64,000 nt of DNA. Origin: Tubiluchus corallicola (taxonomy: Eukaryota > Animalia > Priapulida). Positions 3,213 to 61,157 of this stretch are shown one piece after another; positions within the stretch are counted from its first letter, which is position 1; each line of letters opens with the position of its first letter. The notes under the pieces are model-generated. The model was not told the DNA's origin and did no database searches. It saw nothing but the letters and a program-made list of their open reading frames with translations. The stretch spans positions 62,001-126,000 of the forward strand of contig JAQGDQ010000001.1 of assembly GCA_030141605.1 (NCBI GenBank), written 5' to 3'. The position numbers were made by a program, and so were the translations under genes.

Positions 3213-3252
<40 letters not shown>

Positions 3253-9769: not shown

Positions 9770-12630
9770 GGTAATGCTGGATTGGGCATAATTTAAAGAA
9801 ACTAAGGAAAATAGCAGGAAATGGCAAAATCTACATTGCTCCAGACAAGAGAGAGAGGAGGATAAAGTACAAGGAAAGAAAGGGAAAACAGATAAAGCAA
9901 GGGTAAAAGCAACTTGAAAATTAAAAAAAAGGTCAAACAATTTTGCAGGAAGCAGAGGATGAATCTGGGAGTGTTGTTGGAAATAAGCGGAAAAGTAAAG
10001 TGACGACAAGGAGCCGAACTTGGAACAAACCAGCTCCAAAAAAACGGCAGTAACCTAGCAAAAAAAATGTAGATAGTGTAAATAGCATTGTTGATTGTTT
10101 TGGATCTACTAACACTCTAAATACTAGTTGGAGTGGAACTATTCAACACTTATGCGTGTTAAAATGTTTTTCTACTAATGCTTGCAGCATCGTAAATAAG
10201 ATGGATGAGATGGAGTGTTATGTAAAATGGTATAATCTAGACGTAATTATGATCACAGAAACTTGGGAACACGATTCAACTGAAGACGTTACCTCAATGT
10301 TAAATGATTATTCATTGTTCAGGACAGATAAGAGTGAAAGGCGTAGCAGTGGATGTATGATGTATTTTAAGAAAAAAATGCTGGTTACACTTGATGAGAA
10401 ATTAACAGCAACTGCTAATACTGAATCTGTTTGGTGCAATGTAAGAGCGAACTGCAGTAATATTTTGTTAGGTACTTGCTATTTTTGTCCACCCACGGCC
10501 ATGTCATGAACATGAAGCCGCTTTACATTCACTAATAAGAGAAGTGGTGAGAAATTTATTTGTGGTGATTTTAATCATAGAACAATTGACTGGAATACAC
10601 TGTATGCTGACGGTGAAGGTGAAGCTTTTGTTGATTTAGTGCAAGACTGTTTCTTAATCCAATTTGTTGACAGGCCTACTTGAGGGGAGAATGTATTAGA
10701 TCCAGTATTATCATCTAATGAAGCACTAGTGGGGAACAAAAGTAAAGGAACCGCTTGGTGCAAGTGACCACAAGATATACTGACATTTGATGTGTTAGTA
10801 CAAGTCTAGTTAAAAATTTGGAAAACTTAGTATCTAGAACTTTCATTATACTAGAATGCAGAAATTTTTAGCTGACTGTGAATGGAATCTGACACTGGTA
10901 GATATGGATGTGGAAGATCAATGGAAGGGTGTGAAATCTGAAATTAATTCAGCCATTAGTAAGTTTACACCTAGTAAAAGCACAGAGAAGAGGAAGTCTA
11001 CTACAGTAGGTGCCGCTTAATAGACTCACTTTAGGACGGAAGTGTTTTGACCAATTTAACCGACTGAACCTATTAACTGATCAGTGTAATATTACTGGTA
11101 TAGAAGTATGAGTCACCAGCTTACTATGCACTGCAAAGGTTTTTAATGAATTTTAGAAACAACGTAATGCCTAAATTGCTTTGTGCAGTTAAAAATGAAT
11201 AAAATATATTTTAAAATATTAATTTATATAAGTGAATTAGCAATAAATTAAAAAGTTTTCTAAATCACACAAGTCTGCTTATTTGCAAAAATTATGAAAA
11301 GTCGGCTGCTTCATTTCATCACGAAGAAGTTGGCTCACAAAATTCTCATAATGATAAAAACGTTGAAAATCTGTTGCATGATGCACAAATTCTTGTAAAA
11401 TACTTAGTGCCTGGCGTGCTTAAACTGTTGGTGGTGCCCGTGTTTCCGTGTAAGTGTAGCATCTGTTGTTTCACCCAAGCTCCCGCTTGCTATTATGACG
11501 CACTCACTGTACTGTACCTGCGTCCTTGGCATAACAGCAACATTTAGCTGATTAAACTTTCTAGCAAAGAAAGCCAGAGTTTCAAAAGCAAATGGCTAAG
11601 CAAGTGATTAAATGTTTAGCTTCCAGGAATTCTTGGGTAACGAGGTTAATTGCAGTGGACGGGCGGGTCAAAGCAAACCATTAGGCGAGCACATTAGCGT
11701 ATGATAAACATTCCTGCTTACAAACAAAAGCATGATTGTTTCTACGTATATTATAGGACAAAAGCCAACTAAGATGATATAAAAGTCATAAAAGCTAATT
11801 AGTCACACGAAAGTGTCTTATTGAAGCATGTGAAAAAAAAATATTGAATCAATTATGCAGAGTTATTTGAGTCAATTACCCACAGTTTTTATGTACAGTA
11901 ATATACCAGGCATTTTTTGAGTCAATTAAGCGATTGAGTCTATTAACCGTGAGTCTATTAAACGGCGTCTACTGTATTTGGTACAACTGGCATGTAGACA
12001 AAGCAAGAAAGTCTAAAGTCAATCATAGCAAAGGAAAAGTTGAGTAAACTGCAAAAGGCTTTTAAGAAATACAGAAGGCATACAAATGAAAGAAGATAAC
12101 CTGAGAAGGTTCATTTTCATTTTAACAATATGCATTATGATTACTTTATGGGAAGACATGAGATTGGAGAGTACTACCGAGGTCAAATATTTGGAAATGT
12201 TAATAAAGTCGAGCAGTCAATGTGCGGAAGCAGCTATGAAGGCTAACAGAATGTTGGGCATGATAAAAAGGTCTTTTATTAACAGAGGCAAAGATGTAAT
12301 TGTAAAACTGTACAATTTTGTTAAACCAAACTTGGATTGCTGCATGCAGGCATGGAGACCCTATGGTGGAAGATATTAGGTTGCTGGAAGGTGTACAAAA
12401 GAGAGCTATAAACTTGATTGAGTGTTCTAGCTTTTGCAGAGTTAACATATGAACAGAAACTGAAAAGATGCAGATTAATGACCCTCAGCTGAGAGGGAAG
12501 CTGACTGAAGTTTTTGGAATTGTGAATGAACTTGAGGGTCTGGAATGTAATGACTTTGTTGTTGTCAGTGATGACAGTAGAACAAGAGGTCACTCCAAAA
12601 AATTAGCAAAGAGAACGTCTACTGCTGATG
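9770..12630 (+). mobile_element. Decayed CR1-type LINE (ORF1 tail, APE endonuclease, RT C-terminal part; RT core missing)
   Basis: LKCFSTNACSIVNKMDE..LDVIMITETW..YSLFRTD (APE endonuclease), GDFNHRTIDW, then KYL..SSQCAEAAMKANRMLGMIKRSF..VKPNLDCCMQAWRPY and RTRGHSKKL. Many stops and frameshifts. Confidence 0.88.
11004..11974. mobile_element. Tc1/mariner-pogo-type MITE inserted into the CR1 LINE
   Basis: TIRs CAGTAGGTGCCGCTTAATAGACTCAC ... GTGAGTCTATTAAACGGCGTCTACTG, with TA on both sides (11002-11003, 11975-11976). Confidence 0.85.
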
Positions 12631-18110: not shown

Positions 18111-18340
18111 AGAAATAGATACCCTTCAATGATTTGTAAGAGCATTTACAGAAATTATGGAATCAAGAGAAAATATATAGCTGTTACAAGGAAATGCAAT
18201 AAATGGGAAGGATGAGACTCGTACGCAGAACAAGGAATAAACATATGATGACGTCAGAAGAAACTAATCTGCTCTTGCATACTTAGGTTAAGCTGATTTT
18301 GGAAAAGGGAAAGCGAAACCAGTGAAGCAGTGAACCAGCA

Positions 18341-19840
18341 ATGACATTAATTTTCAGAGTCTTTAGCTACGGAGACATTCCCAGTGATTGGAAGTTATCT
18401 CGCATTAGTCCGATTCATAAAAAGGGACCTAAAAATAAACCTGCAAACTATAGGCCAGTTGCAATTACAAGTACTGTTGGCAAACTGCCAGTGAGGCATG
18501 TTGTCAATACAATACTTGTCTATCTGCAGTCTAACAATTATTTAAAAAAGATCCCAACATGGGTTTCTCAAGAAACAGTCAGTGACAATCGAATATGTAT
18601 TCTCTACACTGGATCACGGCAGTCCTCTTGACTTAGTATACCTAGACCTAGCAAAAGCATTTGACAAAGTCCCACATAGAATATTGCTGCTCAAACTTGA
18701 GGCATATGGTATTCAAGGACAGCTGGTTAACTAGATAACAGCATGGCTAAGTGACAGTTTCCAATATGTCGAAGTCAAGGGTTGTGCATTTTCTACTGTC
18801 CCAGGTCTATCAGGAATGCCACAAGGACGTGTCCTCGGACCTCTGTTATTTCTCATCTCCATTGCCGACATGGATGATAATGTAGGTAGTCGGCTTCTCA
18901 AGTTTGCTGACGATACCACATTAGCTTATCCAATACGCTCTTCTATGCAAGTGAGACAGCTGCAAGAAGATTTGCACCAAACCTGTGCATGGGCTGACAA
19001 ATGGCAGATGGGATTTAACACACTTGATGGTAAATGTAAGGTGATGCATGTGGGTAATCAGACCAATCCAGCCACATACAGCTTTGGTGATGTCGATTTG
19101 CCTGTAGTCACTGAGGAGGTGGATCTTGGACTGTTAGTAGATAGCAAACTAAACTTTTGCAGTCATGTCTCTAAGAAAAATACGAACTGTAACAAGATCC
19201 TTGGATTAATCAGTAGAACCATAACTTCCAAAAGAGCTGAGATAATTCTCCCACTATACAAATCTCTTGTTCATTCTCATCTCGAAAATGTCAGTCAGGT
19301 ATGGGACCCTTACTATCGCAAGGACATCCGTGCTCTAGAACAGGTACAAGCACGAGCTGTGGACATGATCATAGGTCTTGAAGGATTCCCATACTTTCAA
19401 AAGCTGCAAAAGTTAGACCTGTATCAACTCTCTGCAAGAAGACGTAGGGGAAGACTAATTGAAATGTTCAAGATTCTTAAGGGATTTACTGACATCAATG
19501 CAAACCAGTTTTTTTACACTCAATAGAAGCATTACACGTGGGTATAGTGTTAAATTGTACAAGCGTAGGGTTAATACTGAAAAGTATCGGCATAGTTTGT
19601 CACAAGCCAAAGTAACTGTGGAACTCATTACCGGAATCATTAGTAAGTGAGTGCAAATAATGTAAATAGTTTCAAACATAAACTTGATTCAGAACTCCGT
19701 GCGAGAAACTTCCTATTTTAATACCAGTCGGTATATTAAGAGGAGTAAATCAACAACGAACAACTGGACAATGATGTGCTTTGACAGCTATTCTGTGGAT
19801 GAGAGATCAGGGTTTACTCACCACGAAGGTGAGTTTAACC
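18341..19840 (+). mobile_element. CR1-type LINE reverse-transcriptase region and 3' end
   Basis: PSDWKLSRISPIHKKG..NYRPVAITS, YLDLAKAFDKVPH, PQGRVLGPLLFLI..KFADDT, KCKVMHVG, LYKSLV..QVWDPY, TRGYSVKL. Terminal stem-loop at 19811-19840. Confidence 0.92.
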
Positions 19841-21526: not shown

Positions 21527-24500
21527 ATGGGATGTTTATGTGGTAAAGACTTAATTACTGTGAATGGGAGGCAATTTCAAGTTCGAACTCAGCTTGGAGA
21601 AGGGTATGTACAATTATGAAATTTTTTGGAAATTTCTGAAAAGAGTTACTTTTGAATTATGTTTGCCTCTATTATTGTGAAACTATAAAACATAAAACGA
21701 TATATTGGTTCAGATAGTTCTAGAACTTGTGTGTGCTATTCTAAAAAATTACATGTGCAAATATATAGTTCATAATCTTGTTTTACATAATTTCGTTTCT
21801 AGTGTTGGGTAGTAATACCACTACTGTAGTTCTACTAGTAAAATTAGTAGCGCTCGATAAGTATCTCCACTTTGAAAATGAATAGTGTTAAACTAAATTG
21901 TAATTTCTCTGCTTTTTTAAGTAGCGCTATAATTGCATTACATTTAATTCTTTGGGTTGACAGTTAATGTCTGTGTAATGAACTGTGTTTGTCGTAGCAG
22001 CTGCAGACTCCTACAGGTTTTTTCAGCTGTGTAACTGTTTCTGTGGTTGTAATGATTTCAGCCACAGTGAAGCAAGACTTTTACTTAATTTAAACATACT
22101 TATTTTATAACCTTTGTACAAAACAGTAGAACTGATACAAAGTCCTTTGGTTACAGAGATAATACAAATACAATACATGGAAGACAAAGTGCAGAATTAA
22201 TATTTACGTAACATTTAAACAAGCTTATTAATTAATAAAAAAGACAGTCGCAATCTAATGAATATTAGGCAAATGCATAAACAGTAATATAACATTGTCA
22301 ACTTAACGTATTGAATTTAGCTTAGGTTAAAACATTTAATTTATCTAATATAATTGTGTACAGCAGTAAATATCCTACAGTTTAATGAGTCGTTATTGAC
22401 CTAAAGACCATTTTGACTTTATTTTTCAAGTTTTCAAAATTTTCAGGATCTTCATTGAAAAAGTTGCTCTTTAATGCACCCACTTGCTCCATTGGTCATT
22501 GTTATTAGTGAGTCTTTTGGAGGTTTTGGGTATTCTGCCCAAAAGCGAACAGTTGCTGCTTAGTAACAGCTACTTCAAAATATTAATATTTTAAGCAAAT
22601 AAACATGTTCAAAGTTGAACAGTAGTTTACCACATGGCATAAAATAACAGTGTCATGTGAATAATATTGTAATGAATAATTTACATACTATTATGTTATG
22701 ACTGACTTGTAAGTGTCTGTTTAAAATCATAAACAAACTGCTTAGTAAGACCCTTGATACAATTTGATGCAATTTGATGATGTGTTTGTACTAGGGTTTC
22801 TTTAGCTGCTTCTTAACGACTTGATTATCATTATTAGCAGGCTGTTCTAAAGTGCCACTTACATTTTGCAGTGTACTATATCAACGATTCTCAGAAATCA
22901 GAAGTCGTAGCCAAACTGAAAGTAGTGGCTATTGTTGTAACACTACTTTCATGCTATAATTGTCTTTGCAACAAGTATTTTTTTAAAGTAATTGTAGCAG
23001 TACTGCCACTATTTCTCAGGAGAGTAATTATACTTATAGTGATAATACGTTTTATAAGTAATTGACCCAGTACTGCAGTTGTTGGTTTTATCTATTTTCA
23101 AATCGTTTTTGCTAGTTTACTGGAGACCGATAAGTCAGTAAGGTGCTTCGTGTTTTTCTGTAGAGGCTTTAGCTACGTTGAACTTGTTGAAGACATCGGG
23201 ACACGTCGACTGTATGCACTGAAACGAATCTCTTGCCAAACTCCAGAGGATGAGATTAAGGCCCAAAAAGAGGTTGAAGTTCACGCTGCTGTTCAGCATA
23301 AGAATATAATTGCATGTGAGGACTGGACGTTAATACAAGTGAGAAATCCCGCTAAGAGCATCATAAGTGAACTGCTTCTTGTGCTGCCGTATTACCGCGT
23401 ATGTTGGACAAGTATATTTGGTTTACTTTTTTTTCAGTTGACTAGTAAATATTTTTTATAGACATATTTATTTTCCATAACCTTTGGTATACAGAAGAAA
23501 ACTGAATAATATACCTTGGGAATTGGTCTGTAATACAAAGTTGATACATTTACAATTAGATATCTATAGTTTAACAGTGACAGTGCATCAAGTGTAGTCT
23601 AATGGTGAAAAATGTTAAACTAACATTTACTGAATTGGCTAGAAGCTTTCGTAAATTCCTGCATTGTAGCAAAAATAGTTTTATTTTGGTCAAGATTGAA
23701 AAGTAAGTTACCATGTACTAAAGTATGGATTTTAGTTTCGGTGTTTAATTCATTAATTTTAACTGGGAGAAAGTTTGAATTATACAGGTTAAATAAACTT
23801 CACTCGAGCACCCACTGCTCCCAGCGTGCAATGGACATTCCAACATTCATAGTAAATATTCACACTGCATTTAAGGCCTTCTCTAATAAAATAGTTAAAA
23901 TTGTACCAACACGTAATGCACATTTTTTCAGGCATTTGGTGGATCATACCTTGCCTAAAATCTAGATGCAGAGCCCATTTAAGATGCACCAAATTAAGCA
24001 GATTCTGGAAGTTAAAATTAATTCCCTCTTACCACTTATGTAAGTGGAATACAGCTTGACCACTTCGAGACACTAATATATTGCGTTAATAAGTAATACA
24101 TCATCATTATGGCAGGTGTCATGGTTATAGTGATAAGCATAATATATATATACACACCCAAATTTCAATCTGCTGTATTTTTAGCATAGCGGTTTTGAAA
24201 AGGCTGCACTAGCTAGCAGTACTCAAAACTCTTGCCATACTTGCTGCTCCTAATGTGAGATAATTCTTCTTTCATATTATACTTTTTTAAGCTGGATCTC
24301 AAGATAAACAAATCAGAGATGAAAGTAGAATGTGGCTTTGCTCTCATTAAAATGATTTGAAATATTTGTGTTTAATTGGCAACCTTTCAGCAAGGAGAGA
24401 TAAGGAAGATGGAAAACTAAGGCATGCACACTTGCTCACTCTTGCTCTGGCTTTGAGTTTTTTGTTAAGAGACTTCTATAGGCAGTGATTATACATGTAC

Positions 24501-37095: not shown

Positions 37096-37365
37096 ACATT
37101 GGTTATTGTTTAACGTCGAAAACACATTTTCAGGTTTTCATAAATGGAGTATGTACGGAAATTGTGTTACAAGCCACTCGCGTAGCAGTGTTTAATTTTT
37201 TGTTGGATTAGTAATTGTGTTTACCCTTTCTTTTTATTTTAGACGTAATGGGTATATAATAATGAAATAGGCTGATTGAAAAGTGGAATTTTATAATAAT
37301 TGCACATGGTCAAGTCTTAAGTTAAATGAAATGTGACTCCTAAACAATCAACTGATAAGGGCAAA

Positions 37366-39144
37366 ATGGAGGACACAGCTGATAACGATCTCGAACTTAA
37401 AAGCTCGAAAACGAAAGAAGACGATGGCGTCGATGCAATAGCTGCAGAGGTCGAGATTCAAAAGTCTAGTCTTGTTAGTAGTAAGAAGCAGCGAAATCGT
37501 AAAAGAAAATTACTGAAAGACATACGTGAGCAAATGGAGTTTTACTTTAGTGATTCTAATCTACACAGGGATAAATACTTGAATGAGAAATTAAAAGAAT
37601 CAAGCGATGGATTCATTCCTTTATCAGTTTTTGCTAAATTTAACAAGATAAGTGCTTTAACAACCGATGTTTCGGTTCTTGCAATTGCTTTACAGGCATC
37701 ATCTTTTCTGCAAGTTAATTCAGAACACAAAGTTAGACGCATTTCAGAAATAAAAGAACTCACCAATGCAGATGACTGCACTGTGTATGTAGAAAATTTA
37801 CCGAAACATGTAACCCATAATTGGGTTAAGAAGATTTTTAAGCGCTGTGGAAAGGTGACTTATGTTAGTTTGCCAAAGTACAAAAAAAGTGGTGACTTCA
37901 AAGGATTTGGATTTGTGGAATTCAGTTGTCCTGAAGCAGTAACCACAGCATGCATGGAACTGAACATGCCAAGCACTTCGAGAGATGATTCTGAATTGTA
38001 CAGTGAACATTCTACTGATGATGAAGAAGTACAAGAATACCACGAATCTCTTTTGAATCGTCGTAGTCACAGCTATCGAAACAACATGATGGGCAAAAAA
38101 CAAGATTGTAAGGATCACACAGTCAATAGCCATGAATCAGGCAATCACAAAAACCATCATAACAGTCATTCTGTGCATTATGAGAGTTCTAGTAAAGACC
38201 AAAATAAAGCAGAAATACATCATTTGCGTGGCCGCCACTATAACGACCATCGCATTCAACATATTGATGGACAGAAGTGTGACACTGACAATGAAAATAG
38301 TAAAAAAGACCAAACAGAAGCTGCAAAATTGGTTGTTTCGCCAGTTAAACGTAAAGTTGATGAAGATGGCGATACTAATCTGACAAATCCACTTTTCAAG
38401 AAACTTAAAACTGATCATGATGACAGCAATCAAACAAAAGAGCCAGAACAGGATAAAAAAACAGTGGGTATTTCTATAATGTCTAATAGTAATGACAATG
38501 TTACACTTGATTCTAAAGCCAAAAGAAAGCCAATGCGAAAAAGGCGAAGACATCGTAGAGACAATGTGGCAAGTTTGCATCCACTTCATGTAATGCCAAA
38601 AAAACAATGGTTAGAATTGAAAGCGCAGTATAAAGCAATTCAAAAGGCACATGTAGCTGCTATAAAACAGAGTTTGTTACTTAGTGATGCTTCTTCCTCA
38701 AGTATGGTGCACAAAACCTTCCCTGTTATTCAAGAAGTTAAGCCATTGAAAGAAAATCAGACACATGTGTGCAGTCAAACAATGGTACCAGGAGTTATTA
38801 TAAAGGTATTTAGTAAGGAGCCAGTAAGTAATATCAGAAAATTGAAAGATAAACTTAAGGAAACAGGGTATGTTGCTTATCTTGATTTGAAAGATGGTGA
38901 CACTGCTGGCTTCGTTCGATGTAAAAATGCAGAAAGTGCTGAGAAACTGCTGAAAGTAGAAGCGCTAAAAATGTTTGATAATGATATTTTGTCTGGAGAG
39001 GCTGAGAAAGAGTACTGGAAAAAAATTGAAGAAGATCGCAAGGAGAGATATGCAAAAAAAAGCAAAAAGCGTGGGAAAGTGAAAGTTGTAGATCAAATTG
39101 ACAAGTTGGCCCAAGAAAAAAACAAGCATATCTTCTTCGATTGA
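37366..39144 (+). CDS. LARP7: La-related protein 7 (La motif, RRM1, xRRM), single coding exon, 592 aa from the first ATG
   Basis: IREQMEFYFSDSNLHRDKYL (La motif), TVYVENLP..VSLPKYKKSGDFKGFGFVEF (RRM1), LHVMPKKQWLELKAQYK, GVIIKV..VAYLDLKDGDTAGFVRCK..EKEYWKKI (xRRM), C-terminal KHIFFD. The track ORF begins at a GTG (37333); first in-frame ATG is 37366. Confidence 0.95.
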   Translation: MEDTADNDLELKSSKTKEDDGVDAIAAEVEIQKSSLVSSKKQRNRKRKLLKDIREQMEFYFSDSNLHRDKYLNEKLKESSDGFIPLSVFAKFNKISALTTDVSVLAIALQASSFLQVNSEHKVRRISEIKELTNADDCTVYVENLPKHVTHNWVKKIFKRCGKVTYVSLPKYKKSGDFKGFGFVEFSCPEAVTTACMELNMPSTSRDDSELYSEHSTDDEEVQEYHESLLNRRSHSYRNNMMGKKQDCKDHTVNSHESGNHKNHHNSHSVHYESSSKDQNKAEIHHLRGRHYNDHRIQHIDGQKCDTDNENSKKDQTEAAKLVVSPVKRKVDEDGDTNLTNPLFKKLKTDHDDSNQTKEPEQDKKTVGISIMSNSNDNVTLDSKAKRKPMRKRRRHRRDNVASLHPLHVMPKKQWLELKAQYKAIQKAHVAAIKQSLLLSDASSSSMVHKTFPVIQEVKPLKENQTHVCSQTMVPGVIIKVFSKEPVSNIRKLKDKLKETGYVAYLDLKDGDTAGFVRCKNAESAEKLLKVEALKMFDNDILSGEAEKEYWKKIEEDRKERYAKKSKKRGKVKVVDQIDKLAQEKNKHIFFD

Positions 39145-42063: not shown

Positions 42064-43303
42064 TTACAAGTTTTGTACAAAACTGTTAGCAGCTTGATCT
42101 TCTGGTGTATCTAATGCTATCTGTTCAGAGTCCATGCTTTGCTTGAGCAAAGATATGGTATTTAATGATTTGCCATTTCCAATGGTCAGATATTGTAACT
42201 CTTCTTGATGGTTGATTGGACTGTTGTGAGTTTTTGTGTGACTTTTCAGTTGATACAATCGTGAGAACGACTTTCCACATACCTCACAACTGTAAGGCTT
42301 TTCCCCAGTGTGAATTCTTATGTGTTGATTGAGTTCTACGGACTGGCGGAATGCTCTTCCACAAGTCCCACATGTGTATGGCTTTTCACCAGTATGTTTC
42401 AAAAAATGTCGCTTTAAGTCCCACGATCTGCGAAATGCCTCATCACAAACTGTACAATGATAAGGTTTCTCCCCAGTATGAATTTTTTGATGATCTTTGA
42501 ATAAACTGGATCGTGCGAATGCTGCATCACATACTAAGCACCTGTATGGTCTCTCACCTGTAAATGAAATAAAATAACTACAAAGGCAGTTGCAGCCTTT
42601 TAGTGCGAGAACTGAATAGCAGTCTCGACGAGCCAATTCCTAACAATTTCAAATAAGTGGTAGGGATTATTAGGGATCCAGATTTGAATGCCTATTTAGA
42701 CTGTACAGTGACCAGCTAGTTTCGGGTCTATAACAAATTTAAAAGCCACATTAAAAGATCATGCTGTTTGAAATGTCTAGATCAAGTCGAATATTACTTA
42801 GTACGTGACCAAGTCTTATAAGATCACACATCATTAAAAACTTACAATAAAATGCATAAACATTAAATTTATAAAGGCATTAAAAAGGCAAAAGTTGAAC
42901 GCTCATTAGGATTTACATTGAGATATGAATAGCAAAGTAATAACTTGTAATTAAATCTTGTTGAAACTTAAATTGCTAAACCAGGTTCAGGAACAGTCTC
43001 ATTATTTGTCCCTTATCGGCCTAAACTTGGTGTATAATCACAGTTTTAACAGTTAAGTCCACTACCTCATTTATACACCACTTATTACTCACCTGTGTGC
43101 ATCCGAATATGTTGTTTCAAATGTGATGACTGTGTAAATGCAGAATCACACTGGTCACATGTATAAGGACGCTCACCACTGTGAACTCTTTGATGGCTTC
43201 GTAGTTTACTTTTCGTTATAAATGCTGCATTACACTCGTTGCACTGATGAGTCTTTTTAGTGCTCATAGCGGTGTTGTTGTTAGGTAACACCTCAACGCT
43301 CAT
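42064..43303 (-). CDS. C2H2 (Kruppel-type) zinc-finger protein with six fingers; 5' end uncertain
   Basis: Exons 43320-43093 (ATG at 43303, frame open back to the acceptor) and 42557-42064 are joined by a phase-1 GT-AG intron within HTG|ERPY. Six CxxC..HxxxH fingers with TGE(K/R)PY linkers. Upstream exon(s) not identified. Confidence 0.88.
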
Positions 43304-44339
43304 ACTAGCTTGTATAGTGACTGTGGAAAATAACACAAAATCTATCATTATGTAGTTCAAATCAAGTGGATCCTAATTTGTACTAATTCTCCATTGCCAC
43401 TGATTATGCTACATAAAATGAACACTGCACGCACATTACAACAAAAGTCCAAACCTCAGTAAAGTAAACTTGATTAAAACACATGACATAATTTTTTTAC
43501 TAAAGGAAGCACCTTTAATGAATCAATAACTTGTATAGGTTAGATTGTCATTTGAGTTATCCCAATTTATGGCTTTATTTAGTATGTGAATAGTTTTTAG
43601 CTTGGAATGGTTCAGCAATAATTAGACCATAATGAAGAGTGCCCATATTACAGTTTTTATCAGGTAGTTTTTATCACATTCTGATACCTTATCCAAAGAA
43701 ATAAGGACCTAGGTGGTAACTATCTATAAACGTTTCTCTCTCATATGCCTTTTGAAACTCAACTGATAAAGCAGTGATAGATGATGATGAAAGATGATTC
43801 CATGGTTGAACTACACTACCCAAAGTGCGATCTGATATTGGTTCTAGCTGGTTTCATAAATAACTTAGATTCATGACTACGAAGAACTCTGTGAGGCCTG
43901 AAAAAAGTCTGCCTCAGTCAGAACAGTATTTCCACTAATTATTTTGAAGCAGTTCACAAGGTTTACAGTTTCACACCTTTGTTCAAGAGTAGAAATTGAA
44001 GTGGGATCCAAATCAATAGCAAGACGAGTACATCAATCCTTTTTAGAGCATTCTTGAGAGTAGCGTACTAGGGTGACCATACAACGATGCATATTCCAGA
44101 ATGGGTCGAACAACAGTTTATAGAGAGAAACAATTACTGTTGCATTTCTCGATATCACACACTGCTTAATCATGCCAGTACAATGGTTTGCTTTTGTAAT
44201 GATAGGATTCACATAGGAATTCCATTTGAGGCATTAGAAATCATTACTTCCAAGTTTCTGATACAACTTTTTTCAGCTATTTGAGCATTATTTAAAAAGT
44301 AAGGTGAAATATAGGCTGCACTATCACTACATACAGTGT

Positions 44340-50300: not shown

Positions 50301-51493
50301 AATTACTTGTGTTTATTTATGTGTTATGAACAAGTACAAATGTGACAATTGCAGCTAGACTTATACAATGCTGTAAAGTAACTTTGTTTGAATTTTATAT
50401 GCTTCAGTTTCGATTAACAGTTTACTATAGATGAGTGTTTAGCTAGTATTATGAATAGGTACTGTAAGTACTGCCGGATGGGAAAGCCATACACCTGCCC
50501 TTCAACAAGTGCATAAGTTGGAAAGTAGGTTGTCGAACTATTTTATTTCGACGGCTTCATTCGGTACGTTTTTGCTATGACGTAAAGACGTTTGCTCTGT
50601 ACGTTTCACCTGGGGACTATGTAATTTGCTACAATTTGGCATTTAGCATTTTTAGAAGTGGGATTAGAGTTAAAGGACAGCAACATTTCCGGGCAGTCCA
50701 GATATTTTATGATGCATTTTGTGTACTATCGGAATTTACAGCCAAATGGATACTTGGGACAGTTTGCTTAATCCGTTATGGCATTACTACTGTTCACGTG
50801 GAAGGTTGGACTGAATATCATTGCATAAATTTACCTGACTATGCCTCGTATTTATTTTTCTTCCATATCTGGTAAACAACACTATGTCTAAGAAGTTTTG
50901 CAATAATTTGAAAGTTTGTTGTCCAAAGTTATAACATGATATAGGTTTGTTTTATTTAAAAATAGCTACACTCTAAAGATTAAGTATAGTCTTGTTGTCT
51001 GAGAGACCGTCTTTAGAAGTACTTTTAATTTAAACCAAAACGTAGTGCAGCACTCTGTTTGATTTTGAAAATATCTTTTGATCATCACAAATTTGTTCAT
51101 TAAATTTTGATCGTTTCTATACCAAGAATGCGTCTTTGGTGTGCGTTTTTTTTGCGGAATAAAAAATATTATGAATAATTCATACTTTGTTTGCTAAACA
51201 CAATAACAGCAACTCAAAGCCGACACTTAAGATCCCACTCGTGATTCAAGCCCACATCATTTGTCTGAAGGTACGGTCCGTAGAGGTGTGGGTGTGTGGG
51301 TGTGTGTGTATATGTGTATATGTGTATATATGTGTTGCATGGCTTTATCGGAATTAAAAAGATTTTCCTGGTATACAGCTCATTAAATTACTTTCACTAC
51401 ATGTATTATTATTCATTTTTCATGCATAGTACTCAGGTAGGTCAACTATTATACTTTTAATTTCCATGAATTTTAATAAGTCGAACTCAGAAT

Positions 51494-54400
51494 CTAAAGG
51501 TCGTTTATTATGCAATCGTCAGAATTGAACGTAAACACGTTAAGTTTCCCACATTTTCCCAAGTGATTGTTGGAGGCGTAAGGCGATATTCCTCCAGCAG
51601 ATCCAGTACAACTGATTTGATTCACGTCTTTTTCCCAGAATCCAATGGTCCCTCTCATTAACACACCCTGTTACAAAAGAAAATAATTTAATTCTCTAAT
51701 TCTCTAAATAAAATAATTCTCTAATAATTTAGCCTCATCGGTGATCGATTACTACACTTTTATTATGTATAATATGTACAAGTAATATTTTGGTTTATAC
51801 TACAACAAATGACAACAACAATGACAATAACTGTGACAGCGGTAGCTAGACAAAGGCTCTGAGTGGGACATCTACAAAGTAAACCACAAATGATACCGTA
51901 GCGGCCAAATAAGAAACTTTAAATTACCAGTTACTAGAATTAATAACAATTGCAAATACAAGAATCTCCTCTTTGTTCCGAGCTACCTATAGTGCGAAAG
52001 CACAGCTAACTCAAAAAGTCCTTTGGAAAGCAAGAGAGTAGCAGCGTACCACCTTTAATACGAGAAATATACACACAACACCTCAAACCCGACTTCTATC
52101 GTGACAAGTTAATTAATTGCTGAGTTTTGTCATTTAATTTTGTAATTGTAAAACCGGAAAACCCGTTCTGACTAATTTGCTACGATTGAAGATCCGAAGA
52201 TTTCAGTTAGCGAACTTAGTTGAGTGCTCATCAAACCTGGTGCGGCGAAGATAGTCTAAAGATAAAATTGTTAAGTTCGTACGCAGTGTTGCGGTATGTA
52301 ATATGTAGTACACCTTGGAATTACGGGCCTGGGCCAAACGCGCGAGCGATTCTAAACTAAAGACTTCGAATCATTTTACTTCGAATTTCTATTACGTCCG
52401 CCGCGTGTAGGCAGAGTGGCTGCATATAATTTTGTGATTCTGAGGTTTGTTGTCAGTTACCTGTCTGTTGGCAGATCTGGAGACATTGATCCTATTATTA
52501 AAAATAATCGAAATTCTGAACCAAAAACGCTAACCTAAGCGTATGGACTATCTGATAAATATACAATACCTAGCTGTAAGCATGGTCGGATTAGCACTTT
52601 GCGGGGCCCTATCTCAGCTGGGAGGTGCTACGATCCCTTCCCGCAATAATGTTCGGAAGTATAAGCCTGAAAGGCATTTCTGTTCTTTCATAACTTCATA
52701 ACTTCAACAAGTTATTGAAAATGTAGGGTGCATTAATTGTATGAGTGCAGGTACGGGCGCGGGGTCCTTCTAGAACGCCTGACCTAGTTGGCCTATTCAA
52801 TAATCCGCCTTTTAAAACACAAGAAAGCCCTCCACTTACATAAAGCTTAAAAATTCGTCTTGAAATTTTATAAAACTTAAACATTACCATTTTGCATGCA
52901 GGGCTTATGTCGACAGTAACGCTGTATAAAATTTGCGAATTTTGCGAAAACTCCCGCTGTGACCGTCAGGTGCAGCCATTTTAATGGTAGGTCGTTTGAA
53001 ACAAGTTTAGATATGTATTAATTGTATTGACATTGCGTGACGTTTGAAAAACATAATTAGCGCATTCGTAGAAGACACGTTACTATATAAGTAAAATTTT
53101 AAATTACTGTATCTTATCAATATGATCAAAAAAAAGTTTTTTGGTTAGTGAGTGGCTCACTCCGAGTGAATGATAGTTTACCAATTTGCATGAAAATTTT
53201 AAATTATTCTAGTAATATAAGTCTTTCAAGTAGACAAGCGAAATGCTATGTAATATAGATTTACGTGGATAGTTTTTTTGAGACATAATTTAACATCGTC
53301 TTTTCTTCCCTTGATTTACGTTTACGTAGCGACGTCATATAATGGCTCCCGCCGGAACAGTATTGCGTGACGTTTAAAATGAAGACAAGCAAAAATTCCC
53401 TTTAACGCGAGTATGATATATGCATAAAATTGCTGTAAAATAGCAACATTTTTAAGGCGAACTTTTTGAAACCTATTTCAGGTATCATTTTTCTTGTCCT
53501 TTAAGTACGCATCTTTATGCTGTTACCGTATAGGCCATTTACATAAACCAAAACTCTCCTGACTTCAATCTTTTAAATTCTAACCTTTACTTCAAACCAC
53601 CCATCTTCTGTTTTGCTACAGTCAATTTCTATTTCCAACATCCAGTAATGATCTCCGAATGAGTTCCAGATCTGGAAACCGTCGCTTAGGGGGTCATTTG
53701 TGGTCCACGCCAGTGGAGATCCAAGAGGATGTAAACCACTATAGCTGCCTACAAATATGTAAATAAAAACTGTAAACGTCTGTTGTACACATATACGGCC
53801 TAATTTTACTTCAGGTGCATAGTAAGCTTATAAAGCAGGATCGTTAAATACGTGAAAGCGCCAGCTTGTAGGAATCTATGCCCAATAAACATGTTTATAA
53901 TACTGGATTGCTTGTAATAATTTAATTTAAGCAATTTAATGCGTATGATTGATATCAACCAATACGCGTATACATGTAGACGTATATTGTACGTACACAG
54001 TTACTGTGAAGTAATTTAAAGTAGCGAGCGAGTTTTTTGATAGTTAACAAAATTTCAAGAGTTTATCAATTAGTTCAGTTAGAAAGCCGCTTATCATTTA
54101 TTCGCTTATCCTCTCATTGTTTGAGTGGATGAATGCTTTAGCTAAATGCGCCGCGTTAAGAATGTGTAGTGTAGATGAAAGATAGTTTGATGGTTTACAA
54201 ATGCGACTGCTACAATAGATGTGGTCGTAATTCAAAAAATGGATGGCTGAAATTTAGGGTTAGACCAGGGAGTTGCAAATTCAACAATGAATATAATCTA
54301 AACTATATACTGCTACTGCTACTACTACTGCTACTACAGCTACTACTGCTACTATCAGCTTTCACCCCCCCTCTCGGCCGCATTCTGATTGACTGATGTT

Positions 54401-57400
54401 AGTAATCTACCATGTCTGTTACATGTCATAAAACCTTGGCTTAATTAGATGTTCGCATGCAGGTATAAAGAAATCAATCACAATTGATTAGTACCACCTT
54501 GATTAGGCTCTGCTCCATACCAGTCTAGGTGATTGTCTTGATGCTTCCACGAATGATAGGACACGTAAGATGAATGGACGTCTCCAACGTGCTTGATTGG
54601 AATGGAACATTGGCTCGTATATGCATCATTTGTACAACCTGTTAGTAAGATTAATTTTTTAAGTCATTACAGAACATTTCGACGGTTATTAATTTATTAT
54701 CGGAGCTCGAGTTATATTGCATCTAGAATCGATCATGCTTATTGTGCACGTGTGGTGCACCAATGCTAACAAAAGAAATCGGCACTAAACAAGAAAACCA
54801 CTTGTATTTGTACAGAGCACAGCGCTTTTCTACTCTGCATTTCCTACGGTGTAATCAGCCATTCATTAGAAAAAAGAATACAGTGTTATTCATCCGTGTT
54901 CAATTTCAGAGCTTTTCCTGCTCAACATATTTTATGTCGCGATTATTAGTGATCTTTGGCTTGAGTTTGATCTCAGTCTAGGAACTTCGTTTTGTCTCGC
55001 AATATTAACTTTACATGCGTGATGGTATTTTTACATAAGAAGAAAGCTATAGATGAACTTGACCTCAAATAATCTGTCACATTGTATGTCCGTAAAACAG
55101 AGTCGAACCCATTGCCTCTCGGGTTATGTTTTTCATGCCTATTTTGGAGTAGTTTAAACTGGATCAAGAGTATCAAAGATATTTTAGTTTTAGTTGATCA
55201 ATGGAACCAAACTTCAACAATAATAATTATCAGAAATAAGTAATTTTTTTAGGGGGGGGAGTCAAAAAGCAGCAGATTTACCAAATAGGATAACTTCGTT
55301 ACTGGTAAATATTTGCTACAATGATAGCGGCCGAGGGTGTGCTGACACTTATAAATAATTTTGTAATTGATGAGAACACTTCAAGTAAAAATGTAAACTT
55401 AATAAAACTCGGCAATGTCCTCGGCAAAGGATTGTGTATTTTCAGGGACAAAGTCAATGATGTGGCAGCTCTAGGTAATATGATGCCCTAGGAAAGTATT
55501 TTTAGCATCCCCTTTTCAACGGGTATTAACTCTGCGATTCCATGCACCACACCCTCAAAACTGAATTTTTGTTGCATAGAATAATGCGTAATGGCACCTG
55601 TGTGCTAGACTTATAAGTGTACTAATTAACTGAAGTTAACTACCTATCTACGATTGATTTCATTCCAAATTGAATGTATGACCATATAGTACTGGGTCTT
55701 CAAGAGAAATAAGAATTTCTACAATGTCTGCTGTACACATTTCATCAGGTGCATACACTTGACTGGATTATCGCTCAACCTTTTCTTCAGAAAATTTTTG
55801 AAACACTAATTCTTTTTCGCGTACATCCATTTCACTACTTAGATCGTCTTTAAAACAACAACTTGCAAATAGTTCATTAGCGTATCTTTTTGTTGTTCAG
55901 TGTCCAACCGCATGCTTTTTTCATTTCGTTTTCTTTATTACGCTCCTGAGGGCTTCGATTGTTATAGGTTTGTCCGCTATAATTAGATAAATTATACACC
56001 TAGAAAACAACTTTTTATTAGCGGAAGGAATTACTTTCTCTGCTGTTTTTTGTGTACAATATAAACAGGATAGCGCGTTTAGATGAAATGATGTAATATT
56101 AGGAAGCCAGGTACAGTAAAACTAGATTGTTTATCTGAGGATGAGACATTCGTGTTAGCATTAACGAATCATACATTCTGACAGGCAAGAAATTCGTTTC
56201 GTTTCAGTTACCTGAAGTATTATGCACACATACAATTACACATAGACTATGTTATGTTAAACTTAAAAATGGATTACTTCTAGAATTTGGCGATCCCCCA
56301 AGTGGTAGAGCTAGCGTTTGACTCAAACGAAATGATTAAATTACCTGGTCGTATTGCATGATCAATTCCTCCACGTGCAAAAAGGTTCTCACCCGGAACA
56401 GATTCATATTTCATAAAGACTACAGTCCGTGTACCGAGCAATCTACAAAACAATGAAATTGCCGCAAGTTTTCGGATACTCGTTTGCGATATAACTCTCG
56501 TAATTTTGTATATTTTGACTAACTAGCTAGTAGCAGAATAGCAGTATACGGCATATAATTTTGATATACATGGTGACTGTTTTCGACATAGAGGTCTTAC
56601 TTCATTTAAAAGGTATACGTACAAGTCAGTGCTTGATTTAAGCCAGCTCAGATAATTGCTTATTCTAGTAAATACTGTAGGTTGACCTGGTGTTCCACAG
56701 CCGATACCCCAGGACACAACTCCAACCAACGTCGTCTTATCGTTGAATTCCACTGTTAATGGTCCACCCGAATCACCCTAGAATAATTCAGAATACATGT
56801 GTGACGGCGTAACGGGGTCGGTTCTTAGGGTGAGGAAGTACCCGAGACCTGACTACTAGCCGAGTGTGATAAGGGCTTATAGCTACGAGGGGTTCTCACG
56901 CTGCTACTCCTTTAGTCATCAGGCATCGATTACGTCTTCATACATAAATAGCAAAAGAGTTAAGCTTAGGTTCAACGATATATTTTGACATGACAATTTT
57001 AACAAATTAAGCTAGGTTGTAATACGATGCAAACACGTAAAATGCACATAACGTATAGCTACCTCATTAATATTAGTGCTCTAGCTAAATACTCATACCG
57101 TGGCGCCATGTAATGGGAGAAATAATGTACAGACGTCCGGTTGGCCGGCAGGTTTCTCAACAAGTCCTGTTCACCACAAAGAGTAAGAAAGGAGCTCCTG
57201 ACGACTGGTATCTGTCGCTCACCACCAGCGTACTCCCACCATTGGTCCTCGGAACTCCAAGCGTCACTTATGGCTGACTCGTATGGGAATCCTCTTAAGC
57301 AACGACTCTAATAACTCGAAGGCCGACTTCCATTACTACGATGGTCTCACCAGGTGTGGCTATCCACCAGTCCATCAAATACGGCCACTAATCACCATTT

Positions 57401-59918
57401 CACAGCGGGTGTACCCAGTTCCTCCATAACAATTACACTGCAACTAGTTCTTGCACCTAGCGCTTCATTCATTAGTGTAATTTGGAACAATAAAGGTTCA
57501 AAGCATTAAGCTGCTGATAATCATTCTACGTTTGTCTGGACTAGTTAAAAGGTGAAAGCATTTCAACCACTTCTGACATGTATGTAACTGAGCGTCGTAT
57601 AGCCCATGCTGACTGTCTATTTCCACACAGGTAACGGCGATCAGAAAATAGGTCAGTGTCAAGCAAGTGCTTCATAGAATAAGCGATTACCACTGTAAGG
57701 GGGAAAGAGCTAGAACAAACTAAATACCTATTACTATCTATGCTCAAACGAGGTAGCTATAAACAGTAGGCTACTATGAGGTAGTTATGAGCAATAACAG
57801 TAATAACAATAGTGGTGCAAGGGCAAATATAGCTCAAACTAATGCCGGTATTGAATTGAGGCACCATAGACCTATGGGGCCGTCACAACATACAACATGT
57901 GTGAGCCATCTGTAGCGGTCTTTTGTATATTGTTAAGCTATAATTAACATAGTCAGATATAAAATTAAAATAACGCGGAATCATCAAGCTTTTATTCACT
58001 AGAGTCAAGCAATGCTAATTCATTGTTGTAGTTAAGCCCATATACTACACGAAATTCGTAATTCTAATTTCTTACCCCACAAGCAGCGACTCCACCACTG
58101 ACGTCGCCAGCGCAGATCCACACGTCGGCATCAACTGGAGCATAACCTGGTGCATCATTACATGCTTTTGCTGTCCATATAGGCATATTAACCATTTTCA
58201 AATTCACAGATGTGGAACATCCTGTATATGAAGAAGTCGTTATCTTTATAAATTAGTATAAGACTGAACAGTTTGAGTGAGTAGTTTTGAAAGCATTGTT
58301 TATATTTAATGCAACTATAATTACCATGACCAATTAATTTTCAAAAAATTGCTGGCTTAACAAACTCGTTGTCATATTGCTCTTAGACAGTAACAGTTCA
58401 CAAAGGTAAATGTATCACGTTACCATTAGGTTAACATTTATTTCATGATAGTAAGTCCTTCTAAATCGCGGTGTACCGCGCGAAAACGTGTATCCGAAAA
58501 ATGTAAAATGTATTATTCCGATAACAAAGGCCAAGAAAGGTGATGTTGAAATAAAATATTCAAGTATATAAGTATTAGCAGTTAATTGTGACCAAACTGC
58601 ATTTTTATACGATCATATAGAAAAGTGACGGCACGTGTTCCATTTATTATATACTTTTTTGACGACTTTTCCAGCTATGCGTCTCTTATCTTGCGTGACT
58701 TTCAGCATCAGCAGAATCTGACAGATACCAAGAGAACACAACAATCGTAAACTTCAGTGTTTGCACTATGTTTATTACCGAAATGTTTATGCTGTCGATT
58801 CAGTGCGAAGAGCTTCTCGTTTTCATCTTGTATGTACAGTATATTCAAACTGACGAATTTCACTTTGTAATTAAGTGTACTTTTTAAAATGATTTGAGAA
58901 ACTTATCGGGCTACTACTAGAACTATATCTGTTTTTTATGCTTGAGTAATAGTGATAAATTTATTCTGTTGATGGGCAGCAGTGATTACAAAATTGTTAA
59001 AATAATCGTTAGCTATGTTGATAAAACCTATAGCAATTAACGTTTCAAATACTTGACTAATAGTTGTTTTATGATGTATTAAATTACTAATGGGAACTAG
59101 TTTGAACCATAGAATGTTTTAAATTTACTATTAATTTTTTAGTATGTCTCATTCTTTGTTTCCATGTGTTGATCATATTTCATGAATTGAAATTATAAAT
59201 TTGTATGTATTTGTTTATGTTTAATTGGCATAGTAAAGGTTACTAAAAGATATTATTTAGATTAATATTAGCAAAACTGTAGCTAAAATAGCTGCATGGC
59301 ACTGGCTATGTTATACCCTCACAGGTGGCGCCCCATCCTGACGTTGTCCCAATGTAAGTATCAAAGTTTTCTTCGTGATTATCCGGTAGCTCAACCGGTT
59401 CAATAGACTCAAGGTGCGTGTTCGCTTCTCCATTCATTTCAATAACAGCTAGATCGTGGTAGCCAGTTGAAGAAGTGTACAGTGGGTGTATTATGATTCG
59501 TGATACCACCAGTTCCTGGACAGGGCTAGTCAGCCGATCGAGTTGACCCAGTTGCACAGTAAATCGTGATGGATACATGTCAATGCTAAAATTAACATTA
59601 TTATGATAAGGAAAAGATTTCAGAATAGTTTCTAATTGGTTATATTAACGTAAATATGTCGTGCACAAGGCTATGTTTGATTTAACCAAAGGTTGTATGA
59701 TTTATACATGCGTAAAGTAGGTCACATTGTTCATTGCTCTTTAAATTTGATGACAGACAATTTTGACTCTGAACTAATACAGAAATGTTTTAACTAATAC
59801 ATGTTTGTACTACTTAACAGAAAAGAAAACTGACTGAAGTCAAACTAAAATCAAAGCAAAAGAGTAATAGATTTTAGTACCTTTAATTTAACGAGAGGCG
59901 TTTTGTGTAACCAAATAA

Positions 59919-59961
<43 letters not shown>

Positions 59962-61157
59962 ATACCTTTATATGCGCATTTTTATACAGGTACAATAAAA
60001 ATGTATAACAACACGTCAAGACAACATGAACGCTGTTCGCAATAATAAATTGTATAAGACAGAGGCTTACTTTCTAACGCAGTGCGCCGCAGTTAAAGCA
60101 TATCGTTTACTTAACAAAACGCCACCACATAACTGTCCTCCCAGATAGGTGACAGCAACGGTATGAGGAACGTCTCCAAGTTTCGCATTTGTGCCTCCTA
60201 CAATTCGAGATGTCGCCTCATAAGCTGAAAAATAATAAGCTGCACACTTGTAAACTTTATCTTGCGTTATACATCATTAAGTTATCTCTCGTTATACATT
60301 TTCAATTACGTTTAAATTAATGAATGAAGTACATGTAATAATTAATTGCATGCCCCATTAAGCAATTTTGCCAGTACATAAACGCAACCATTTTACCTAA
60401 ACGTGATTATGACACCTGACTATAATATCACATGATGTACATCGTTGGCGTTATTATAGGGTTCGCCCTTTAAAATTTTCGCAGAATATTTTCTAATTTA
60501 CAGAAGTTCGCTCATACAAGCGTGTGATCTAAACACGGATTAAACGCAATCAGTTTGTTATGCCTGTCTCCTACTGTAATAATAAATATTGAATATTAGC
60601 TCAGAATACTGAAGCAAGTTTATGATTAAATTTAATGAGAAAAACAGAATGTAGTAGTTCAGCAAGTGTTTCAATAATTTGGTACTTCAATATCAGGGGT
60701 TAGGCAACTCAATAGCCGAATTACTTACAGACAAGCACTTGAAAGGAATTCGTTACTGATTATAAGACTATTTAAGAGCAAAATCTTTGAGGAGTTTTCG
60801 CTACTAATAAATAATATTTATGCTTTAACATACTCCATAAAGTCATTATAGTTCATGCATGTAATTATTAAACATGTTCAGATTCGAATGTACAACGAGA
60901 GATCGCCGTTGAATGATATATTTCTGTACATTAAATTTCTGTACATTTCTGTACATTTCTGTACATTAAAATCTGCTGTTTGTTAGCATCTCTTTAAAAA
61001 ATATGTCATAAATAGGCTAAAAATAGCACATTATTTGAAATAAAAAAACGGCTAAATTACAATTATTTTTGCAATTTGTAGACCAAGTGTACCTGTAATA
61101 CTTACCGCACAGAGATCCCAATAAAGTCCACAAATATAGGAGCAAATAAAAATTCAT
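51494..61157 (-). CDS. Secreted S1A (chymotrypsin-fold) serine protease fused to a ~190-aa alpha-amylase C-terminal-propeptide-like domain, 450 aa
   Basis: Nine GT-AG exons, all phase-compatible (1353 nt): 61157-61106, 60224-60071, 59585-59317, 58221-58076, 56777-56623, 56442-56345, 54638-54498, 53748-53585, 51667-51494. Signal peptide MNFYLLLYLWTLLGSLCA, activation site R|IVGG, triad TAAHC / HDLAVI / GDSGGP, SWG. Tail: [95 protein letters not shown]. Confidence 0.9.
52812..53504 (+). mobile_element. Kolobok-like non-autonomous DNA transposon (TTAA target), copy 2
   Basis: TTAA|AACACAAGAAA ... TTTCTTGTCCT|TTAA; colinear with 27422-28109. Confidence 0.75.
56800..57887. mobile_element. Probable solo LTR in protease intron 4
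   Basis: TG...CA termini with a perfect 9-bp inverted repeat TGTGACGGC / GCCGTCACA; flanks ACATG / ACATA (5-bp TSD with one mismatch); GC content above surroundings; no internal gag/pol. Confidence 0.7.
59923..59957. repeat. (TA)n microsatellite
   Basis: Directly visible. Confidence 0.95.

Follow-up and report, generated by a model that had tools for sequence, protein, structure and literature searches.

An S1 protease gene of the priapulid Tubiluchus corallicola with a C-terminal amylase-tail domain and its possible kinship with starch-binding modules

A stretch of 64,000 nucleotides from the priapulid Tubiluchus corallicola (contig JAQGDQ010000001.1, positions 62,001 to 126,000; referred to here as the window) contains a minus-strand gene at 51494..61157 which, judged from the sequence, very probably encodes an S1 protease fused to an accessory domain of amylases. 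This module of 190 amino acids (aa), the extra C-terminal or 'propeptide' domain of invertebrate and Pseudoalteromonas amylases, is called the amylase-tail domain throughout. By a narrow balance, we favour a secreted digestive zymogen of the chymotrypsin/elastase type, whose retained, CBM20-like tail would bind starch or glycogen and focus proteolysis on proteins that coat such particles. Not quite an even chance is given to the broader proposal that the amylase 'propeptide' is an unrecognised, widespread carbohydrate-binding module (CBM) family of the CBM20 clan, interchangeable with CBM20 and welded at least twice to animal S1 proteases to yield starch- or glycogen-targeted proteases.

Gene structure and protease domain

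Nine minus-strand exons were joined to a single frame of 450 codons with its sole stop at the end. All eight introns had GT-AG borders and compatible phases (1, 2, 1, 0, 2, 1, 1 and 0). The encoded order was a predicted signal peptide, an S1 protease with an intact catalytic triad and the 190-aa amylase-tail domain. The initial annotation had proposed that the protease runs on through a phase-2 donor into four further exons adding about 190 aa, and its coordinates, splice sites and frame were all verified.

Exon 1 (61106..61157) supplies the start codon and a signal peptide (aa 1–17) predicted from the hydrophobic N-terminus, where the 11-residue Kyte-Doolittle mean reached 1.95. A short activation peptide up to Arg24, the IVGG motif and catalytic His65 are encoded by exon 2 (60071..60224; aa 18–69; Pfam Trypsin, E 7e-11), and catalytic Asp113 and the middle of the S1 domain by exon 3 (59317..59585; aa 69–159; Pfam Trypsin, E 7e-7). 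Exon 4 (58076..58221; aa 159–207) contributes Cys179, Cys195, Cys206 and Ala204, the last at position 189 of a non-trypsin pocket; it had no Pfam match on its own and aligned inside the S1 domain of a second fusion protein, P0258, described below. Exon 5 (56623..56777) carries Ser210 in the GDSGG motif, Gly231 and Thr241 (positions 216 and 226) and the end of the S1 domain, matched Pfam Trypsin (E 8e-12) and S1 proteases in the PDB (E 2e-13), and is followed by the phase-2 donor at 56622. Pfam Trypsin was matched by three of the four protease exons when these were scanned singly.

The triad His65, Asp113 and Ser210 lies in TAAHC, D and GDSGG motifs, as in S1A proteases, and Arg24 followed by IVGG at residue 25 corresponds to the activation site of S1A zymogens; three standard S1 disulfide pairs are present by sequence. 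Triad, Pfam matches and activation site thereby agree with the proposal that the protease is catalytically intact. In S1 proteases, residues 189, 216 and 226 set the preference of the pocket. In chymotrypsin numbering, assigned by motif count, these positions are Ala204, Gly231 and Thr241, and not the Asp189, Gly216 and Gly226 of trypsin proper. Under the established rules, this combination would make the enzyme chymotrypsin/elastase-type rather than trypsin, and it is predicted to be active. Beyond the three standard pairs, an extra Cys-x-x-Cys was present at the boundary of exons 3 and 4 (aa 157–160), in the 140s loop of the protease. Short activation peptide, IVGG, triad and three disulfide pairs are shared with invertebrate digestive S1A proteases of the chymotrypsin/elastase type. 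Such proteases (MEROPS S1A) are normally single-domain, whereas the window enzyme carries a 21-kDa accessory domain behind the protease.

The fusion joint is intron 5 (56443..56622, 180 nt). Exon 6 (56345..56442; aa 259–292) encodes the end of the linker and strands 1–2 of a predicted CBM20-like domain, which aligned to CBM20 strands 1–2 both with HHalign and in our own profile alignment. An inserted region with Cys293/Cys302, Trp322 and the invariant Trp331 follows in exon 7 (54498..54638; aa 292–339), and core strands with Trp353, Trp374, Cys382 and Lys393 in exon 8 (53585..53748; aa 339–393). Exon 9 (51494..51667; aa 394–450) contains Trp404-Glu405, an animal-type Cys413/Cys445 pair, Asn427-His428 and the stop codon. 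Two ATTAAA hexamers (51456..51477, minus strand), at positions 17 and 33 past the stop, are candidate polyadenylation signals. The amylase-tail domain begins five residues past the joint, behind a linker of about 8 residues. GC content was 0.42–0.49 in exons 2–9, compared with 0.27–0.42 in the introns, and the frame 5' of exon 6 had neither a Met nor a signal-like stretch. We hold the protease–tail fusion, with the 56623/56442 splice deduced from the sequence, to be real with high confidence. A second copy of the S1 or the amylase-tail domain was not found elsewhere in the window. A GC-richer stretch at 57062-57600 in intron 4 (intron GC 0.416, compared with 0.27–0.36 elsewhere), with an 82-codon frame lacking a Pfam match, is possibly a mobile-element remnant.

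Origin and partners of the amylase-tail domain

Residues 264–448 matched the C-terminal domain of the Scylla paramamosain amylase at 97 of 188 positions (52%, E 1e-60) with no frame break, and this frame-preserving match is, by its score, far beyond chance. The motifs that the initial annotation had quoted as typical of this domain were all located, at residues 264–433. With exon 8 alone as the query, the Scylla amylase was the one protein retrieved; the window's own protein was apparently absent from the collection searched. The Scylla domain retrieved 56 proteins, nearly all alpha-amylases of invertebrates and marine bacteria; they were 35–55% identical to the window tail, and none of the 56 had an S1 domain. 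Identity to Pseudoalteromonas was 35–41.5% over approximately 200 columns (E ≤ 6e-34) in all 26 loci tested, which are the basis for the likeness to the Pseudoalteromonas 'propeptide'. The best amylase tails of a crustacean, a chelicerate, a brachiopod and a hemichordate were 48–55% identical to the window tail. These matches to invertebrate and Pseudoalteromonas amylases bear out the identification of the tail as the amylase C-terminal extension.

An extra C-terminal domain is reported on invertebrate amylases in the part of PMC3096672 consulted. By full-length similarity, the window tail groups with these extra domains and is assigned to the same domain family as the 'propeptide' of the alpha-amylase (GH13_32) from P. 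haloplanktis TAB23. Unlike the amylase tails, the window copy sits behind an S1 protease rather than a GH13 domain. Its linker has about 8 residues, whereas that of the Scylla amylase is Thr/Pro-rich and about 35 residues long, and unlike the TAB23-type domain it has the extra animal-type cysteine pair. The 'propeptide' of the P. haloplanktis alpha-amylase was reportedly described by Feller et al. in 1998, and Da Lage et al. in 2004 are said to have discussed the shuffling of these domains and to have set them apart from the starch-binding domain.

At the 53 columns with 90% uniformity or more among 217 copies, the window tail fitted the family consensus in 43 cases; one-residue insertions made up two of the ten departures. 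When 63 copies were placed in a quick tree, the 10 from bacteria formed one side (SH-aLRT 98), and the window copy fell outside this clade among animal copies, with its position unresolved and no phylum placement. The Cys413/Cys445 pair, present in 57 of the 217 copies, is of the animal type. Taken by sequence, the window tail is a member of the amylase extra-domain family, of animal type. A recent transfer of the tail from bacteria was rejected on two grounds, the placement of the window copy beyond the bacterial clade and its animal-type cysteines. In the two genomic animal contigs compared (L010 and L024), introns were sited differently from those of the window, which lends no support to a shared intron-bearing donor gene.

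No Pfam family for the amylase-tail domain was found with ten family members or with the four tail exons. Two matches were dropped as noise: DUF4815 on exon 7 (E 0.0068; 15.2 bits, where the cut-off is 30) and MPN in one of the ten members (E 0.15). Neither exon 8 nor a profile of 10 sequences matched any PDB sequence at E ≤ 10, and thus no solved relative was found by sequence.

The survey of carriers covered 160 loci (80 kept of 217 and 80 of 198) with 166 domain-bearing frames: 137 alpha-amylases, 3 beta-amylases and 26 others. None of the 166 frames was an S1 fusion. Pfam scans of 25 chosen frames identified S8, M64, galactose-oxidase-like, GH31, CBM21 and lectin partners. On one bacterial contig (L065:323-6516, plus strand), three adjacent genes encoding an unnamed beta-propeller-like protein, an S8 peptidase and an M64 peptidase each end with an amylase-tail domain. 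A plasmid search gave two Pseudoalteromonas records without annotation.

In a profile search, 719 clusters at 50% identity carried the amylase-tail domain; partner counts are based on the 150 representatives listed. BLAST identified 26 of these as alpha-amylases and 2 as beta-amylases. Of the other 122, 121 were scanned with Pfam at E ≤ 1e-7 (P0076 was left out). Among them were 8 S8, 4 M12, 1 M4, 1 M64 and 1 C11 peptidases, 2 GH31, 1 further GH13 and 10 proteins with CBM20, 21 or 26. Rescanning 44 at E ≤ 1e-3 gave one additional GH13, M12 and M64 each and a bacterial S1-like domain (P0146); the two GH13 matches are the alpha-amylases that Pfam added to those found with BLAST. An alpha-glucan enzyme or a CBM20, 21 or 26 was present in 42 of the 150. 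The domain was C-terminal in 120 of the 150 and was followed by more than 100 residues in the other 30, and up to six copies occurred per protein. In animal carriers, the domain was either the sole one after a signal peptide (Palaemon) or was accompanied by others: EGF (Patella), MAM (Daphnia), LPMO_10 (Petrolisthes) or PAN. As proposed in the initial annotation, the domain is, on the evidence of its partners, a widely shuffled mobile module, found on amylases, several peptidase families and non-enzymes, and at either protein end.

Two groups of records stood out. Five animal-type proteins (P0205, P0059, P0061, P0064 and P0058) contain the domain in several copies set between Pro/Thr-rich, mucin-like spacers; P0205 belongs to a parasitic nematode. 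Seven records (P0281, P0282, P0063, P0295, P0296, P0290 and P0292) are named 'alpha-amylase' in clusters whose representatives lack an amylase domain, and the name seems to derive from the amylase-tail module alone.

A profile search that retrieved 415 proteins yielded, among the 120 matches listed, one with a trypsin domain. This protein, P0258, has a signal peptide, an amylase-tail domain (residues approximately 29–225) and then an IVNG protease with an intact triad and Ser189. Its cluster comprises three 513-aa members on contiguous contigs of 1764–1828 nt (Logan, JGI), two of them labelled 'alpha-amylase'. Like the window protein, P0258 unites in a single chain a signal peptide, an amylase-tail domain and an S1 protease whose triad is intact and whose pocket lacks Asp189; unlike in the window protein, the domain stands before the protease, in an unnamed, mislabelled record. 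The proteases were 32% and the domains 42% identical, and the domains were not sisters in the quick tree. Because the order is reversed and the domains are not sisters, the pairing of S1 protease and amylase-tail domain is judged to have arisen at least twice, P0258 being an independent case that is contiguous without a splice model. P0146, on a JGI contig with a bacterial-type domain, couples the module to an S1-like domain without the catalytic His and Ser and is, as read from its residues, a third and catalytically dead S1 pairing.

The initial annotation knew of no description of the architecture but allowed that one might exist. No description of the S1 and amylase-tail combination, nor a CBM assignment of the domain, was found in the open-access literature (subscription journals, CAZy and InterPro lay outside this scope). 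A pairing with proteases as such is not unique, given the S8, M12, M4, M64 and C11 peptidases and P0258. What appears new is the S1 fusion in an animal, the independent fusion in mirror order, the wide range of partners and the exchange with CBM20 at equivalent positions, described next.

Relation to CBM20 and possible role

Eleven loci with true CBM20 modules served for comparison, nine from two genomes that also carry the amylase-tail domain and two from a sampling of 121 genomes; L166 and L173 were excluded. As many as 500 residues preceding each CBM20 module were compared with proteins bearing the amylase-tail domain. In three of the 11, the same scaffold leads directly into either module: a GH13 scaffold (L171/L106, 44% over 493 aa), a GH31 scaffold (L172/P0190, 45% over 500 aa) and an unnamed scaffold (L168/P0085, 37% over 515 aa). 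Two others (L169 and L167) share the catalytic part with different modules between, one showed a weak GH13 likeness, three share accessory modules only and two had no match. Since shared scaffolds accept either module, the amylase-tail domain and CBM20 appear to act as alternatives.

AlphaFold2 models were made of two homologues of the window tail, the animal-type L001 (pLDDT 94.7) and L110 from Pseudoalteromonas atlantica (pLDDT 95.7). Both are predicted to be soluble Ig-like beta-sandwiches that match CBM20, with large disulfide-tied insertions. A VIA-align search of 48,161 chains placed CBM20 first for both. L001 matched 2z0b with Z 8.3 (rmsd 2.6, 96 of 111 residues) and the STBD1 CBM20 8x8k with Z 8.2 (rmsd 2.7, 91 of 97), and L110 matched 2z0b with Z 8.2 (rmsd 2.3, 95 of 111) and 8x8k with Z 8.0. 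Across both models and these two chains, 90–96 residues were aligned at 2.2–2.7 Å with 86–94% cover. CBM25, 26, 41 and 48 modules followed, and the top 20 rows were all alpha-glucan-binding modules for both models, counting 4rkk, 3nme, 2qlv and 5yn2, which we take to be such modules. The first row of another kind had Z 5.0 (L001) or 4.7 (L110). The top Foldseek rows were likewise CBM20-bearing chains for both models. The case for a CBM20-like fold is drawn from this uniform ranking and the near-complete cover of CBM20, the Z-score itself being moderate.

Site 1 of CBM20 is a Trp-Lys-Trp arrangement (Trp543, Lys578 and Trp590) according to the portion of PMC9920598 consulted. In 217 copies of the amylase-tail domain, W331 was conserved in 217, K393 in 216, W404 in 210, E405 in 217 and N427 in 216. 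Trp331, Lys393 and Trp404 come in the order expected for site 1, and the sequence alignment supports Trp404-Glu405 only. Trp331 (or Trp322), Lys393, Trp404, Glu405 and Asn427 are candidate equivalents of this site.

Several results weigh against assigning the tail to starch or glycogen binding. The modelled homologues are approximately 53% (L001, judged via its closest named relative) and 37% identical to the window tail, and models that have no clear match typically reach a best Z of 7–8. Foldseek gave no match at E 0.001 (best 2.4e-3 for L001 and 1.7e-3 for L110). HHalign to CBM20 reached 1.6% probability (E 0.031, 22 columns); a run with relaxed gap costs gave 75% with a shredded alignment and was rejected. 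Our own profile alignment had z 2.4 against 120 shuffles, the best of which (27.7) exceeded the real score (23.8), and it covered strands 1–2 and Trp404-Glu405, not Lys393 or the first Trp. The CBM20 profiles in these comparisons were small, with 9 and 14 sequences. Partners were unannotated or unrelated to starch in 108 of the 150 representatives listed, and animal carriers include LPMO, MAM, EGF, PAN and mucin-like proteins. Pfam PF00686 (CBM20) matched none of the ten family members at E ≤ 1 and none of the four tail exons. The amylase-tail domain resembles CBM20 (PF00686; cyclodextrin glucanotransferase domain E, glucoamylase, STBD1, GDE5) in predicted fold, strands 1–2, the Trp-Glu motif and position on homologous enzymes. 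It differs in size (approximately 190 residues versus 90–110), in its disulfide-tied insertions, in lacking a PF00686 match and in a profile similarity that is not significant. We do not file the domain as CBM20, on account of the missing Pfam match and the size, but it likely works like one, as far as the models indicate.

In the favoured reading, the window protein would be secreted as a zymogen and activated by a trypsin-like cut after Arg24, and Ala189, Gly216 and Thr226 would confer a preference for medium hydrophobic P1 residues, both as expected from S1 rules. The conserved Trp, Lys, Glu and Asn residues of the tail would form a sugar platform like that of CBM20 site 1. Given its C-terminal location and the short link of about 8 residues to the protease, the tail would likely stay attached after activation. 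Proteolysis would then be concentrated on proteins coating starch granules or glycogen, beside amylases bearing the same module. The gene most likely arose by shuffling of the tail exons of an animal amylase-type gene behind a digestive protease.

Other readings concern the product and the part that the tail plays in it. The protease might end by read-through of intron 5, where a stop (56525-56523) is reached after 33 further codons, or through an out-of-frame GT donor at 56600, which is similar in score to the donor at 56623 (by hand count, 6 of 9 positions fit the consensus) and puts exon 6 out of frame. With this donor and stop present, a tail-less isoform is possible. That the tail lies outside the main product, its exons serving a minor isoform or being a remnant, is improbable: the four tail exons hold frame and canonical sites over 5 kb and match 43 consensus columns, the 180 nt of intron 5 contain no AATAAA or ATTAAA and are too short for an independent start and signal peptide, and a second S1 fusion is known as a contiguous record. 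The initial annotation mentioned a 'propeptide' or secretion helper, which would aid export or folding and then be cut off. In P. haloplanktis, and for that species only, the excerpt of PMC1766363 describes cleavage of the domain by a secreted protease at a Ser-Ser-Thr linker. The window linker has Ser-Ser-Thr at residues 255–257, a run of three that may be chance, and the predominantly C-terminal position of the domain would suit such a role. The fit is poor, and we regard this reading as the most doubtful of all. The same excerpt, citing Tutino 2002, calls the domain dispensable for secretion in the P. haloplanktis source strain. The domain is N-terminal or internal in 30 of the 150 representatives listed, recurs up to six times per chain and also occurs as the only domain after a signal peptide. 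In P0258, where it comes before the protease, there is a cysteine that by S1 rules would keep it linked after activation. The homologue models are compact, soluble and similar to starch modules, and past the signal, no 19-mer of the window protein is strongly hydrophobic (maximum 1.07).

Modular invertebrate proteases with recognition domains exist, for example horseshoe crab factor G, and by analogy the window enzyme could be a protease that senses glycans in innate immunity or matrix remodelling, localised or triggered by microbial glucan on the tail. The N-terminal accessory position of the domain in P0258 is typical of such proteases, and the MAM, EGF and PAN carriers would accord with it. 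The window zymogen, with its short digestive-type activation peptide, non-trypsin pocket and C-terminal domain, makes this very unlikely. Less easily set aside, though still unlikely, is a real fusion in which the tail serves as a general anchor, attaching through its insertions to a different glycan or surface such as mucus, the gut matrix, or particles of chitin or microbes, the CBM20-like core no longer setting specificity. Many invariant residues do sit in insertions. The partners include S8, M12, M4, M64 and C11 peptidases and phospholipase D-like, phosphoesterase, esterase, galactose-oxidase-like and GSDH domains, and the animal carriers add LPMO_10, MAM, EGF and PAN domains, mucin-like repeats and the solitary secreted domain. 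Odd partners are nevertheless compatible with starch binding, as true CBM20 in one Cellvibrio genome also occurs on non-amylolytic scaffolds (galactose-oxidase-like, DUF2341, PKD/CotH). The 20 best structural rows, all alpha-glucan modules, and the replacement of the domain by CBM20 on three of 11 scaffolds also speak against a general anchor and for the starch- or glycogen-directed digestive protease.

Neighbouring features and wider meaning

Elsewhere in the window, an intronless 604-codon frame at 37330-39141 (plus strand) matched the Pfam domains La, RRM_1 and RRM_3 and is presumably LARP7-like. As the genes around it are rich in introns, its own lack of them points to a retrocopy or to intron loss. 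A C2H2 zinc-finger gene with at least two exons lies at 42067-43372 (minus strand). Several exon-like frames at 1112-8858 (minus strand), four of which were scanned without a Pfam match at E 1e-4, resemble ASCC2 in our estimation, and a frame at 23066-23458 (plus strand), also without a match at this threshold, resembles what we take to be the N-lobe of an STK16-type kinase. Fragments of LINE-type retrotransposons are present at 10054-10506 and 18326-19523 (plus strand); RVT_1 was matched at 18735-19523, and the remaining pieces are presumed to be endonuclease and reverse transcriptase.

As regards annotation, the records called 'alpha-amylase' through this module while lacking an amylase domain are flagged as errors. 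If the proposed role is correct, one more family of starch-binding modules would be added. A testable function would be gained for a domain that is found on amylases across many invertebrate phyla and on secreted proteins of bacteria by the hundred, yet for which no convincing role has emerged since the label 'secretion helper' was given. Animals would also direct proteases at carbohydrate particles, a kind of digestive enzyme for which we found no description.

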